Part shown: positions 29,791 through 45,867 of the stretch, piece by piece
Position numbering within the stretch: the stretch's first letter is position 1
Layout of the letters: each line of letters begins with the position of its first letter
Origin: Octopus vulgaris
Taxonomy: Eukaryota
Reading direction: 5' to 3'
Length of the DNA: 64,000 nt
Assembly (NCBI GenBank): GCA_951406725.2
Contig: OX597820.1
Span: forward strand, 10,602,001-10,666,000
Translations under genes and position numbers: made by a program
The notes under the pieces: generated by a model
What the model saw: the letters and a program-made list of their open reading frames with translations, nothing else
The model's database searches: none
What the model was told of the DNA's origin: nothing

Positions 29791-30190
29791 AGCGGCGAGC
29801 TGGCAGAATCGTTAGCACCCCGGTGAAATGCTTTGCAGTATTTCGTCTGCCGTTACATTCTGAGTTCAAATTCCGCCGAGGGCGACTTTGCTTTTCATCC
29901 TTTCGGGGTCGATTAAAAAGGTACCAGTTACGCACTGGGGTCGATATAATCGACTTAATCCCATTTGTCTGTCCTTGTTCGTCCTCTCTGTGTTTAGCCC
30001 CTTGTGGGTAGTAAAGGAATAGGTATTTCGCCAGTCGCTACATTCTGAGTTCAAATTCCGCCGAGGTCGACTTAGCCTTTCATTCTTTCGAGGTCGATAA
30101 AATTAGAACCAGTAAAACACTGGGGTCGATGTAATTGACTAGTCCCCTCCACTACAATTTTCAGACTCTGCGTCTGAAGTAGAAAGGATT
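29791..30190 (+). mobile_element. tRNA-derived SINE family D, dimeric
   Basis: A box TGGCAGAATCG, B box GAGTTCAAATTCC. The body repeats after the junction GTAGTAAAGGAATAGGTATTTCG. Confidence 0.85.
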
Positions 30191-30630
30191 ATTAATATTA
30201 AAGAGTACGGAGACTTGTATATCCATAAATTTTGTTTTTCAGAGTTATATACAACATATAATAATGATCTACAAGTGTTTCCGCTTCAGCCACTACTCAC
30301 CATTGCAAATGCAGCCTTGCATTATTGTCGGTGGAGCTTTATCAGGGTCCGTCCATTTGACTATCGTTTCGAACCGATTGAAGTAAATACTTATTATTTT
30401 GTGTTCTGTTGGAGGTGGCGGGAAACAAAGATATACTTCAATCAGCTGACTTAGTGGATGGCCAAATGGCAGGATCCTGATGAAGCTGCACCTACAATAA
30501 TACAAGGTTGAGTATGTAACAGCGTGTAGTCGCTTCAGCGGAAACACGTGTAGGCCATTATAATTTGCTGTATATAACTATATAACAAATTTTGTGGATG
30601 TACAAGCCTTCATACTCTTTACTATTAATA
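30190..30630. mobile_element. Old foldback made of two inverted PLE-type 3' ends, each with a hammerhead motif
   Basis: Imperfect inverted arms (about 30190-30366 vs about 30457-30630). Hammerhead cores at 30266-30349 (-) and 30473-30556 (+). Confidence 0.7.
30473..30556 (+). ncRNA. Type I hammerhead ribozyme with long stem II insert
   Basis: GATC-CTGATGA-A-GCTG...CAGC-G-GAAA-C-ACGT-GTA-GGCC. Intact cores, palindromic ACACGTGT stem III, weak stem I. Confidence 0.6.
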
Positions 30631-31494
30631 TTAGCACGCGCGCACACACACACACACACATACACACACACACACATGCACACACACACACATACCACAG
30701 AAGTATAGAGATTTTAAATCCAGGCTGATACCTTACAAGCGCGCTGTTAAAAGTTCAAATTTGGCTACCCACGTCGTATCTAAGGAAATATTTAGAATCC
30801 TTTAGAATAAACAATTATAGTTCTATTCCATTCAGTCAGCAAGTTCTGAGTTTGTTTCGTAAGATTTCGTGTAGAATTCAGAGTATATTATAAAGGCATG
30901 ATGGGGAATTTGGGGTTATACACCTTTAAAATCTATTGAATTATAATTCTTTTTCTGCATATTAAATTCTGATACGTGTTTCTGCTGTATAAGTGTCTTA
31001 GGATCCTTAGGTGTGATCGTTCAATGCATCTGGTCGATTTATATTAAATTAATTACAGTATAAATTCTGATTCAAAGATTGGCATTATTATATAGCTTTT
31101 TTTAACGTGTTCCCCATATGCGTCTATGAAGCGAACTGAATTTACAAGTATGAAGGATGAATTTCTAAAAGTGGTGAGGGAATATAAGATATAGGTGCAA
31201 AAGATAGTGGAAAGGATATCAACATATGATATGCCTAGAGATCCAGCTACATGTTGTTGCTACTATGCAAAAGAGTCGTATGTCCAAAACGTTGCTTTTT
31301 CAGAAAACCAAAAAAAAAAAAAATAGCTTCACGGTTCCGTAGCAAAACCATTGTGCTACACTTTGAATATTTTTGATATCTTGTCATCTGAAGCAGCAGG
31401 AGATACGATAGTTTGTCGAAAAGAACCAGTTATTATAAGCAAAAATAAATATTGACAAAAACGTATTTGGCCATATTAATTGAGCAGGTGTTAC

Positions 31495-32084
31495 AATGTG
31501 GGTGGCTTATCATCAAGACGATTAATGGAACCATTCTTATTAGACCCTACAGTGACTGGACCCTTTTACTTGACCTTGCTGCAACAGACAGTCATACCTA
31601 GAATTAGAGAAGACTTTGAAGATGAGGAGCTTTATTTTCAGAAAGATGGGACACCCCCACACTACCATTGTGATATTTGATCCTTCCTTGATAAGATCTT
31701 GCCAAACAGGTGAAATGGATAAAGGGATTTCGTTGAATACCCACCACGTTCACCAGACCTCACAGCACTAGACATTCTTTCATGGGGATACCTAAAAGAC
31801 AAAGTCTATCCTATCACACGTGAAACAGTCACTGATTTGAGAGCTGCCATTGGACAGGAATGCACACAAATACGGAAGGAATTGTTTCGTGATGTTTGCG
31901 ATTCGTTGTTTCGCGTTGTCAGCAGTACCTGGAACAGAAAGGACTTCAGTTTGCAAAACAGGCGTTGACAAAACAATAAAATAATGTCTGTACATTCTAT
32001 TAAATTTTGAAAATGAAATGTATTTTAATAAACACCTATTTTACAATTATTTAAGGTGTGTATACATGTTTTGGGGACACCCTA
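31495..32084 (+). mobile_element. Tc1/mariner superfamily transposase C-terminal remnant with right TIR
   Basis: Peptides [12 protein letters not shown] and EYPPRSPDLTALD, then WGYLKDKVY after a frameshift. Ends TTTTGGGGACACCCT(A) next to (TA)n. Confidence 0.85.
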
Positions 32085-42335: not shown

Positions 42336-42391
42336 CACATTTCTGAACTAAATATAATGTGCGTGTGTATCTTGTATATTTTAATTTTTAT

Positions 42392-42920
42392 CTTTTACTT
42401 ATTTCAGTCACTAGATACCGGCCATGTTGGGGTACTGCCTTGAATTGCACACGAACAAATACACAGACATATACACAATCACATACGTATATATATATAT
42501 ATATATATATATATCCCAAACGCATTCACAAAACTTTGGTCAGCCCGAAGTATAATAAAAGACATCCTCCCAAGATGCCATGCAGTGGGATTGAACCCGG
42601 AACATGCGTTTGAAAGCAAACATCTTACCTACATCTAAGCCTACACCTGTATGTGTATATGTATATATATGCTTGTGGTGTATTATTGATAAGGAATTGT
42701 TTGTTTTGGTACGTGTAGATGTGTGTCTGAGGTGTTTATCCCCACCCTTCGTATGGCAAACTGTGCTTGTTTGTTTTCGTCCTTGCTACCTAGCGATTCA
42801 ACAAAAGACACCGATAGGATAAATAGCAGACTGAAAAAAATAAACCGTAGGGTCGAGTTGTTCAACGAAAATCCTTCAAGATTCTGCGACAGCCTGACCA
42901 CAGACTAATGGCTGAAACAA
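42392..42920. mobile_element. Old SINE family B fragments in both orientations
   Basis: Degenerate tail and head at 42392-42650 (-) and a tail at about 42720-42920 (+). Confidence 0.55.
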
Positions 42921-45526
42921 GAATGATGGTAAGATACTGTTTCCTTGGCTCGAAACACAACCGTTTCATTCTTTCGTTATTCGGTTCTCCGAGACAATTT
43001 ATCTCGATTTCGAAATATTCTACATGGCTTCGCAATTCTACTGCAATATGCAATCACTCGCAAACACACAACCACACACACACACACACACAGACAAAAG
43101 CCACACACACACGTACACCCATTCACTCATACTCACACACATACTCACGCGTATCTATACAGTTAAATGCATTTCTACCGTTATAAGTAAATTTTCCTGA
43201 TTTTAATAAATTTGATAAATTTTCAATTCGTGCGCAACTTGAACTTTTGAATATAAACACTTGAGAACACCGACATTAATATATTGAATTAATTAATTCA
43301 TTCTAATATATTATATGTATCACTGCGATGTTCCAGTGTGGCCGCATCTACTGGGAGCAGTAAAACAGAATGTAGTTATATATATATATATATATATATA
43401 TACAAGCACACATACACACATTCATACATACATAGACCCATACATATGTGTATGTATATATATATATATATATATATATATATATATATATATATATATA
43501 TATATATATATATATATATATATATATATATATATATATATATATATATATATACATAATACATATATACATATATATACATGGAAAGATAGATAGATAA
43601 TTTGATATATGTACATATGTATACATACATATAAATATAAATATATATGTGTGTGTGCGTGTGTGTGTGTGTGTGTGTGTGTATGTGTGTGTAAATATAG
43701 AAAGAGTCAGAAAGAGAAAGAGATTGTTAGATGTATAAATTGATACGTAGGCGTGTGTACATATAACCAGATATACATACACATATGTTTATGTATGTAT
43801 AGGTGTGTGCGCGTGTATATATATATATATATATATATATATATGTGTGTGTGTGAAAGTATGTGTGTATGTATCAATGTATATGACTATAATTGTTTTC
43901 CAAAAATCTACTTTCATATAATAAAATCCGGTGTATTTATTATATTAAACGCAGCACATTTTTCGGTCCTCAAACTGAAAGCGAACACCTGGAGGCATAA
44001 AGAGCAATAACGAAAAGCGTGGGGAAAAATTCGAAATTGTTCTTACGCACACATTGAGAATCATAGACGCACATACGAACGGAACACAAGCATGGATATA
44101 CACACATTGGCACAGTGAAGGTAATTGAAATATATGCAGAGATTACACGGACTTGCTTTCGACGTTTTCACTTCTTCCGTATAAAGCTCAGGCGGAACTC
44201 TACATTCATACATGATTTTAAGCATACGTTCACACTGAGGTTCGCTTGTATACATACACACATAACATGAACACATACGCATACACGTACACATATACAC
44301 AGATACACACGCTCACATATAAATATATGTTTATTATACTTAACTGGTTAAAAAGGCTGTGAGGCAAATCTCGATGCACTAGTCGTTATATACATACATA
44401 CGTACATATATGTATGTATGTATGTATGTATGTATGTATGTATGTATGTATGTATATATATATATATATATGTGTGTGTGTGTGTGTATATATATATATA
44501 TATATATATATATATATATATATTTTATCTCTCTCTCTCTCTATCTTTCTGTCTGTCTATTTATATGCATGTATGTATGTATATATGTGTGTGCGTGTGT
44601 ATGTATATATATATATATATATATATATATTTATCTCTCTCTCTCTATCTTTCTGTCTGTCTATTTATATGCATGTATGTATGTATGTATGTATGTATAT
44701 ATAAATTTAAACTTATATATGTGCGTATAGATACACAGGTAGATCCGTAAATACATAGATATAGATGCAAATATACTCTTGTATATATATATATATATAT
44801 ATATATGTGTGTGTGTGTGTGTGTGTGTGTGTCTGTGTCTGTGTATGTGTGTGTGTATATATATGTGTGTATATGTTTAAAAAAGAAAAAAAAAAGCTTG
44901 TAAAAATTCAACACCACATAACATAAGTAAACAGAGAACTGAAATAAGGAAACACAAATGTGTCATGTCAGATAATCGTTCAAAAAAGTCAAACACATCC
45001 ATTCATGATGTGCGCATCAAAATATACATAATTATGTATAAAGTTCTTGTGTAATCTAGCCTAGAGCAGCGTATTAATCCTGTGTAGGGACACATATTTA
45101 TCGTTATTGGGAAAAATAAAACAAGATGAAAGTCTCGAATTGCAACGAAATGACTCGTGCTTCGCAAAATAACTCCGTAATTTCGATCTGTTTAGGCTTC
45201 GTAGTTAGATCTTTTATAGTTTGCAGACATCAAGCGTTTTCTGGTAACTTTTCAAAGCATCTGTAGGTATCCGGCATTTATCACTTCCTGGTGCACTTTT
45301 GACACGCAAAAGTAGGCCCAGTGATTACGTAAATAGAGCAGAGGGCAAAATGAATTCATAATTATCGATTTATTCTTTGAAAGTGCAAAGTCAATAAAAA
45401 AAAAAAAATCTTTATTTATTCAAAATGTCAAATTGCAGAACCTAAATTATGGCGCTTCACAACAGATCAATCGTAATATCAACATATGTCGGTAGGTTCT
45501 ATATTTAAGAGATGAGGAATTATGTA

Positions 45527-45867
45527 CATTATTTACATTTGACGGATATTTCTCTTCATCTTGTTTGTTAACACAACGCTTTGGCTGATATACCCTCCAG
45601 CTTCGTCAGGTGTCTTGGGGAAATAATAATAATAATAATAATAATAATAATAATAATAATAATAATAAGAAGAAGAAGAAGAAGAAGAAGAAGAAGAAGA
45701 AGAAAAAGAAGAAGAAGAAGAAGAATATCCAAAAATACCTCAGGAATGAGAACGCAGATTTGAAATTTCCTCCAAGACACCTGATGAAGGCTGGAGGGTA
45801 TATCAGCCAAAACGTTGTGTCAACAACAAACTAGATGAGGACAAATATCCGTCAAATATGAATAATG
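45527..45867. mobile_element. Foldback of two PLE-type 3' ends with minimal hammerheads, with an (AAT)n(AAG)n spacer
   Basis: Arms 45527-45624 and 45765-45867. Hammerhead motifs at 45570-45614 (-) and 45776-45821 (+). Confidence 0.8.
45776..45821 (+). ncRNA. Minimal type I hammerhead (core G12 mutated)
   Basis: GACAC-CTGATGA-A-GGCTG-GAGGGTATAT-CAGCC-AAAA-C-GTT-GTGTC. Perfect stems I and II; GAAA reads AAAA, consistent with CpG decay. Confidence 0.7.

Follow-up and report, generated by a model that had tools for sequence, protein, structure and literature searches.

Short hammerhead-bearing foldbacks in the octopus genome as probable head-to-head insertions of truncated Penelope-like element ends

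In a stretch of the Octopus vulgaris genome (64,000 nucleotides, contig OX597820.1 of assembly GCA_951406725.2, positions 10,602,001 to 10,666,000; hereafter the window), three short palindromes belonging to unrelated families carry hammerhead motifs and share the window with a 14.7-kb Penelope-like element (PLE), which raises the question of what kind of element leaves such foldbacks. We propose, with good confidence, that each of them (A, B and C) is one head-to-head insertion of two independently 5'-truncated PLE ends, likely primed from both strands of a staggered cut. At the sequence level this is supported by the PLE parents of the arms, a constant polarity, centres that differ between insertions, the presence of a tail on only one arm, duplications enclosing the pair and variants that point to the same source. 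The foldbacks represent a known type of PLE insertion, here unusually short and frequent.

Foldbacks of the window and the parents of their arms

Self-BLAST of the window recovered the three foldbacks reported in an earlier note on this DNA: A at 30190-30630 (arms 72% alike), B at 33045-33198 (95%) and C at 45527-45624 and 45765-45867 (87%). All have the polarity of the 14.7-kb element, as that note had read it, with the minus arm on the left, the plus arm on the right and the 3' ends outward. When the tails are counted (32897-33052 for B, 45496-45526 for C and 29687-29784 for A), the insertions exceed the sizes originally noted. B and C are tailed on the left arm and the tail of A lies behind a later repeat, the rule of one tail per pair being kept. 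The predicted fold of foldback B reaches -108.5 kcal/mol (z -23.6), and none of 200 shuffled sequences was equally stable. Contigs of two other runs bridge the centre of foldback A with about 6% differing letters, indicating an old, real insertion and no assembly artefact. The parts of the foldbacks and the large element are as follows.

29687 to 29784, minus strand: tail of family A, from the left arm; 72-73% to the tail of a natural copy (L119); displaced by a later insertion
29791 to 30190, plus strand: unrelated 400-bp interspersed repeat between the A tail and the left arm; many copies at 73-90% in the window
30190 to 30421, minus strand: left arm of foldback A, 5'-truncated at about -228; hammerhead core mutated, CTGATAA at 30339-30345
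30424 to 30636, plus strand: right arm of foldback A, truncated at about -202; core at 30477, stem III ACACGTGT at 30544-30551; no tail
32897 to 33052, minus strand: tail of family B, about 155 nt, on the left arm and adjoining (TA)n; 95-98% to the tails of L185, L279 and L282
33053 to 33117, minus strand: left arm of foldback B; 3' half of the hammerhead only; 4 nt (33114-33117) common with the right arm
33114 to 33190, plus strand: right arm of foldback B; no tail, then (CTAT)n(TA)n
45485 to 45497 (left copy) and 45870 to 45882 (right copy), plus strand: target-site duplication of foldback C, 11-13 bp, one mismatch
45496 to 45623, minus strand: left arm of foldback C with its 31-nt tail (45496-45526); 89% to L106
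45624 to 45725, plus strand: (AAT)n(AAG)n linker that forms the hairpin loop; derived from the element, belonging to the right arm and present likewise in family copies
45726 to 45867, plus strand: right arm of foldback C, consisting of the end of the pseudo-long terminal repeat (pseudo-LTR) and the start of the open reading frame (ORF); core at 45781-45787, G12 lost; no tail
14128 to 28846, no strand assigned: large head-to-head and partial-tandem PLE (14.7 kb); reverse transcriptase (RT) frame at 23161-24801; 73-nt tail at the left end only

All three arm families lead into parents elsewhere in the genome that encode an RT and a GIY-YIG-type endonuclease. In the family C copies L103, L104 and L108, an RT frame is followed by an endonuclease-like frame, a tRNA-like segment, the AAT linker and the arm; the RT frame matches Pfam RVT_1 (E 3e-8), and homologues carry RVT_1, part of them also GIY-YIG. 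The family C arm itself encodes the N-terminus of the ORF: the right arm of foldback C matches residues 16-52 of the full-length homologue P0038 at 51%, and arm, tail and continuation together match residues 19-102 of an 847-aa homologue at 48%, such a continuation of about 115 nt being present at 4 of 62 distinct tail ends. The four continuations past the tail into the ORF (L063:1265-1380, L260, L015 and L105) halt at nearly one place, and a third, more distal start site in family C is possible from their common end.

For family B, RT and endonuclease matches lie 5' of the arm in L176, L181, L183 and L185, and in the 4.9-kb foldback L279 both arms contain coding sequence; for family A they lie 5' of the arm in L121, L130 and L136. 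The arms of both families follow frames matching the RT and endonuclease of the window PLE, which has a 546-codon frame at 23161 with RT motifs. These parent links for A, B and the window ORFs come from tblastn and motifs, as Pfam gives no RT or GIY-YIG match for the frames of A, B or the window PLE and names the RT of family C only. In L090 and L096, PLE frames lie 3-4 kb 5' of the B arm, but they are not mutually collinear and were rejected as parents of that family. Between RT and endonuclease, the family B ORF of L279 and L282 contains a long run rich in asparagine that resembles the N-rich inserts known in rotifer Penelope elements (PMC3846280; this and the other papers are cited for the parts of them that were available). 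In the window PLE, the RT frame ends and the endonuclease frame starts at 24759-24801 in different frames in both plus-strand copies, the minus copy having one base different there.

Origin of the head-to-head pairs

The search space was the 2.8-Gb assembly (227 contigs), in which exact patterns, 33-34-mers for B and C, gave 357 (B), 2,873 (C) and 61 (A) matches, to be taken as lower bounds. The first 30 exact-pattern loci per family, 90 in all, were analysed, and an inverted partner was sought within 1.5 kb. Five loci holding the second arm of an insertion already counted, together with the window's own A copy, were left out of the polarity counts, and searches with whole foldbacks as query, which are biased, were excluded from all counts.

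An inverted partner was found on the 5' side of the arm in 14 of 26 loci for B, 16 of 29 for C and 17 of 29 for A, hence 47 in total, and on the 3' side in one (p 3e-13). The foldbacks span 74 to 1,528 bp with 46 distinct values among the 47 (B 14/14, C 16/16, A 16/17), which indicates that the centres are unique, and about half of the anchored loci are solo arms. Exactly one arm is tailed in 42 of the 47 foldbacks (B 13/14, C 15/16, A 14/17), with tail lengths of about 155 nt in B and about 180-200 nt in A. Target-site duplications are readable in family C only, where duplications of 9-15 bp were present in 11 of 16 foldbacks, to be compared with duplications of at least 9 bp in 11 of 240 mismatched flank pairs, and the duplication encloses the whole pair of arms. 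The two arms of family B foldbacks also share non-CpG variant columns more often (20/53) than arms of different insertions do (38/751). The same comparison gives little or no excess in C (1/90 versus 11/1,260) and A (11/226 versus 115/3,550), suggesting that the sharing in B reflects a common source and not a later arm-to-arm conversion. In family B, 33 of 40 arms are 202 nt or shorter and six end at -201/-202, beside a TCATT that we take to be initiator-like. In all this the arms grade continuously into ORF-bearing copies; a direct copy was seen in only 4 of the 90 anchored loci, and head-to-tail tandem arrays of the unit were absent from them.

Double-primed, extremely truncated PLE insertions were one of the two readings offered in the earlier note, and this one is supported by the parents found for all arms, the 47:1 polarity, the unique centres, the one-sided tail and the variable duplications. 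Arms without a PLE parent, random polarity and a match of the arms to terminal inverted repeats of DNA transposons with fixed target-site duplications had been named there as refuting; each was examined, and PLE parents, a non-random polarity and duplications of no fixed length were found instead.

Concerning the mechanism, both strands of a staggered cut would serve the PLE protein as primers for reverse transcription, the two target ends priming on the same RNA or the same source locus. One priming would begin at the far of two internal start sites of the RNA and yield the tailed arm, the other at the near site and yield the arm without a tail. Each cDNA would then halt independently or run off the 5' end of the RNA, and joining of the two cDNA ends would rely on complementarity over a few bases or on a small stretch of filler. 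Where priming falls within the 5' pseudo-LTR, the transcript start is no more than 200-280 nt away, which likely accounts for the shortest products, and the hammerhead would be a passenger of the pseudo-LTR, not a driver. The genomic counts fit the in vitro extension of both target strands from two internal start sites: as described in PMC11167929, a purified PLE protein, predicted to act as a dimer, cuts and extends both strands, two internal start sites bound the tail, and the hammerhead is dispensable in vitro. The one-tail rule and the shared variants tie the two in vitro start sites to priming on two strands. The origin of inverted PLE insertions is named as unresolved in Craig et al. 2021, and thousands of tiny foldbacks from three unrelated families provide a genomic test set for that mechanism.

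Several observations weigh against this explanation. The in vitro data concern one lizard element. Both arms are tailed in two foldbacks (L145, L205) and neither arm in three A foldbacks, 5 of the 16 C foldbacks have no clear duplication, and A and B lie mostly in (TA)n/(CA)n microsatellites, which hide duplications. At the B centres, arms overlap by 2-6 nt in 7 of 14 cases and abut in one, but are separated by a gap in the other six, and family A has no sharp 5' limit. The anchored samples also over-count foldbacks, since either arm can match the pattern, and after correction for double matching foldbacks are nearer 40% of insertions. Finally, one locus (L210, G000:C1:11298795-11301828) has two tailed family C ends facing each other; the flanks beside these tailed ends are reverse complements, as after a local inversion.

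Among the other explanations, self-priming would have one cDNA (or an antisense RNA) fold at a palindrome and be copied into the inverted arm, as PMC3846280 proposes from palindromes at the inverted junctions of rotifer Penelope elements. Many C centres do lie on a short palindrome at the 5' end of the family's head, and source variants common to both arms speak for it as well. However, a fold-back copy cannot gain a tail that is missing from the longer primary arm, and the tailed arm, longer in six family B foldbacks and equal in one, is the shorter one in 6 of 13, and in several of C, which weakens fold-back copying of a single cDNA. Most centres, moreover, lie away from any palindrome, and we regard self-priming as unlikely.

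The pairs could also stem from two independent insertions at one spot, PLEs being said to insert beside earlier copies (PMC6765202), or from later rearrangement, for which the appearance of L210 speaks, or gene conversion. A polarity of 47:1, one duplication around both arms and the one-tail rule argue against these possibilities, gene conversion leaves no signal in C or A, and we hold them to be very unlikely.

The other reading of the earlier note, non-autonomous palindromic (retrozyme-like) elements transposing as whole hairpins, could draw on the high copy number (at least 357 B and at least 2,873 C exact 33-34-mer matches) and on the recurrent 5' ends in B and C. It is not supported by the foldback spans, which differ in 14/14 cases for B, 16/16 for C and 16/17 for A, and is further opposed by the solo arms at about half of the anchored loci, the gradation of the arms into ORF-bearing copies up to the 4.9-kb foldback L279 and the lack of head-to-tail tandem arrays in those loci (direct copy 4/90), so that it appears highly improbable. 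Miniature inverted-repeat transposable elements (MITEs) of DNA-transposon origin, with terminal inverted repeats, would account for short inverted arms and TA-rich targets, but are already refuted both by arms that are the ends of RT-encoding elements and by duplications of 9-15 bp that are not fixed, the asymmetric termini with one tail and the varying centres and unit lengths (46 spans in 47) leaving this possibility practically nil. Short palindromes with one-sided tails should rather warn annotators that they may be looking at retroelement ends.

Hammerhead motifs and the head of family C

A full or half hammerhead had been ascribed to each foldback. Direct reading of the sequence confirms the motifs, although most of them are no longer intact in the copies of the window. 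The right arm of A keeps CTGATGA...GAAA-CACGTG-TA with mismatched stems, whereas the core of its left arm is CTGATAA; foldback B holds the 3' half only, the full motif being found in parent copies of the family, and both arms of foldback C are without the G of GAAA. In the pseudo-LTR of the parent copies a minimal type I hammerhead motif is intact, representing a putative ribozyme. This call rests on the motif, because Rfam and folding gave no independent support. No hammerhead is among the best 150 of 582 weak Rfam matches for the whole window, which are nearly all microsatellite-driven miRNA, nor did Rfam give one on L106:1600-2000 or, at the gathering score, on 12 loci. Apart from the B hairpin itself, none of the six hammerhead stretches folds better than shuffled sequences, and single-strand folding is not discriminating.

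The number of hammerhead-type families, put at up to six in the earlier note, is indeed six: the 14.7-kb PLE, A, B, C and the motifs at 38382 and 7112, without DNA similarity among them. The last two are solo ends.

38382 to 38520, plus strand: family D, a fourth PLE family, represented by a solo end with core CCGACGA and stem III ACAATTGT; endonuclease/RT matches upstream in 3 of 12 loci
7030 to 7196, minus strand: family E, represented by a solo end; its core CTGTAGA is that of a minimal hammerhead variant

Their non-canonical cores are conserved in nearly all of 12 copies per family, and each family has more than 2,300 first-look candidates; no ORF match that would reveal a parent of family E was found in 12 loci. 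In the 14.7-kb PLE, stem III of the hammerhead at 28770-28835 is 4 bp long, which sets this motif apart from the minimal ones and may allow it to cleave in monomeric form.

An A box and a B box, separated by 32 nt, lie in the pseudo-LTR of family C, with the ATG of the ORF about 140 nt further downstream (L106:1662-1970, L249-L278). The A box TGGCGTAGTGG is present in 13 of 30 loci, being partly fixed by the search pattern, and the B box GAGTTCGATTCC in 17 of 30. In tRNA-derived short interspersed nuclear elements (SINEs), the consensus given in PMC8969392 places the boxes 30-35 nt apart and 10-15 nt from the 5' end, and family C agrees with it. A pattern for the head has 2,616 matches. Among 30 head-anchored loci, 26 5' ends lie at -255 to -276, within about 20 nt of the predicted start of RNA polymerase III (Pol III), and four reach further; six are at -276, 14 nt before the A box, two of these being duplicates of one locus. 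The upstream ORF sequence is missing in 26 of the 30 copies. The arm-anchored set agrees with this: 25 of 91 scored arms end at -253 to -286 and five continue into the ORF. The idea that this head is a free-standing SINE was dropped: the head forms part of the ORF-bearing parent, and in 24 of 30 cases the arm comes after it.

These sequence features suggest that family C may make a PLE-borne SINE-like RNA, and the tRNA-like promoter motif would let the family spread like a SINE. Against a Pol III promoter, family B is similarly limited at its 5' side although it has no boxes, the 5' ends in family C could also reflect stalling of the RT at a palindrome in this position, the reference copy has one T4 run and ARAGORN calls no tRNA in 30 family C loci. 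Contig depth on one family C copy rises at the head, mirroring the genomic copy number, and brings no evidence on transcription or editing. The same is true of foldback A, which no RNA dataset was listed as containing and most of which is left uncovered by contigs of two RNA runs.

A more speculative possibility, to which we give limited credence, is that family C is a PLE with an acquired tRNA-derived Pol III promoter in its pseudo-LTR, which would spawn a 300-400 nt RNA (head, AAT linker, hammerhead and tail) to be copied by the PLE protein onto both target strands. It would then be a SINE that depends on the PLE and arrives as a ready-made hairpin at thousands of sites; together with those of A and B, such hairpins would form a major endogenous supply of double-stranded RNA for editing. 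According to PMC5625713, a lizard Penelope element is massively edited and the octopus is unusually rich in potential double-stranded RNA, for which self-contained PLE hairpins are a candidate source. No report of a tRNA-derived or Pol III-type promoter in a PLE pseudo-LTR was found in the literature available to us, subscription papers being mostly outside its scope.

Relation to known systems and further features of the window

PMC3846280 describes pseudo-LTRs in inverted, head-to-head order, one of them tailed, together with duplications of 8-10 bp, and the same layout appears in Craig et al. 2021 (10.1101/2021.04.23.441226, Fig. 2 legend) and in PMC8969392. The octopus foldbacks resemble such insertions of endonuclease-bearing PLEs in the head-to-head 5'-truncated copy, the tail at one end and the microsatellite targets. 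They differ, as far as the available parts of these papers go, in that a whole insertion can be 74-400 bp without an ORF, that pairs make up about 40-55% of the sampled insertions (nearer 40% when corrected) and that the B and A tails are several times longer than the 30-40 bp reported there.

The novelty implied by the earlier note was too high, since in PMC4209133 paired minimal hammerheads of Schistosoma mansoni, 100-700 bp apart on opposite strands, are already ascribed to truncated PLEs. These share the opposite-strand arrangement, the palindromic stem III and the core variants with our foldbacks. In the available part of that paper they are mentioned in one sentence, without statistics on polarity, tail, duplication or centre. 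The Anolis Poseidon element PAc (PMC11167929) is like family C in that the hammerhead overlaps the start of the ORF and the tail lies inside the ORF start; the work on PAc, in its available part, has both strands extended from two start sites but does not explain inverted pairs. The head of family C recalls the schistosome SINE-like hammerhead repeats (PMC6765202), in which a Pol III-type promoter is joined to a hammerhead, although these are tandem and have no link to a PLE ORF there, and also TRIMp3 Helenus (PMC10886601), with a Pol III-type promoter in its terminal repeat; Helenus, however, is an LTR-type element, whereas family C is an RT-encoding PLE and has its tRNA-like segment in the pseudo-LTR. 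Non-LTR retrozymes (10.64898/2026.07.22.740005; PMC7761336) are likewise short, hammerhead-bearing and PLE-related, but the cited parts describe head-to-tail tandems with intact ribozymes, in contrast to the head-to-head pairs with variable centres and mostly decayed ribozymes found here. In the literature available to us, with subscription papers mostly outside its scope, no paper on MITE-like PLE minis was found; the families themselves may already be catalogued in Repbase or Dfam.

The other palindromes of the window (at 35560, 58756, 1048 and 47558) have no hammerhead core. That at 35560-35787, of 228 bp (76%), is a candidate true MITE, and the 590-bp element at 1048-1640 has inverted ends of about 195 bp (77%). 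The abundant 350-400 bp repeat that splits off the tail of foldback A forms inverted clusters at 40692-42336 and 58708-59927, a further hairpin source. A full-length 5S rRNA match (75.7 bits) lies at 2801-2918 on the minus strand.

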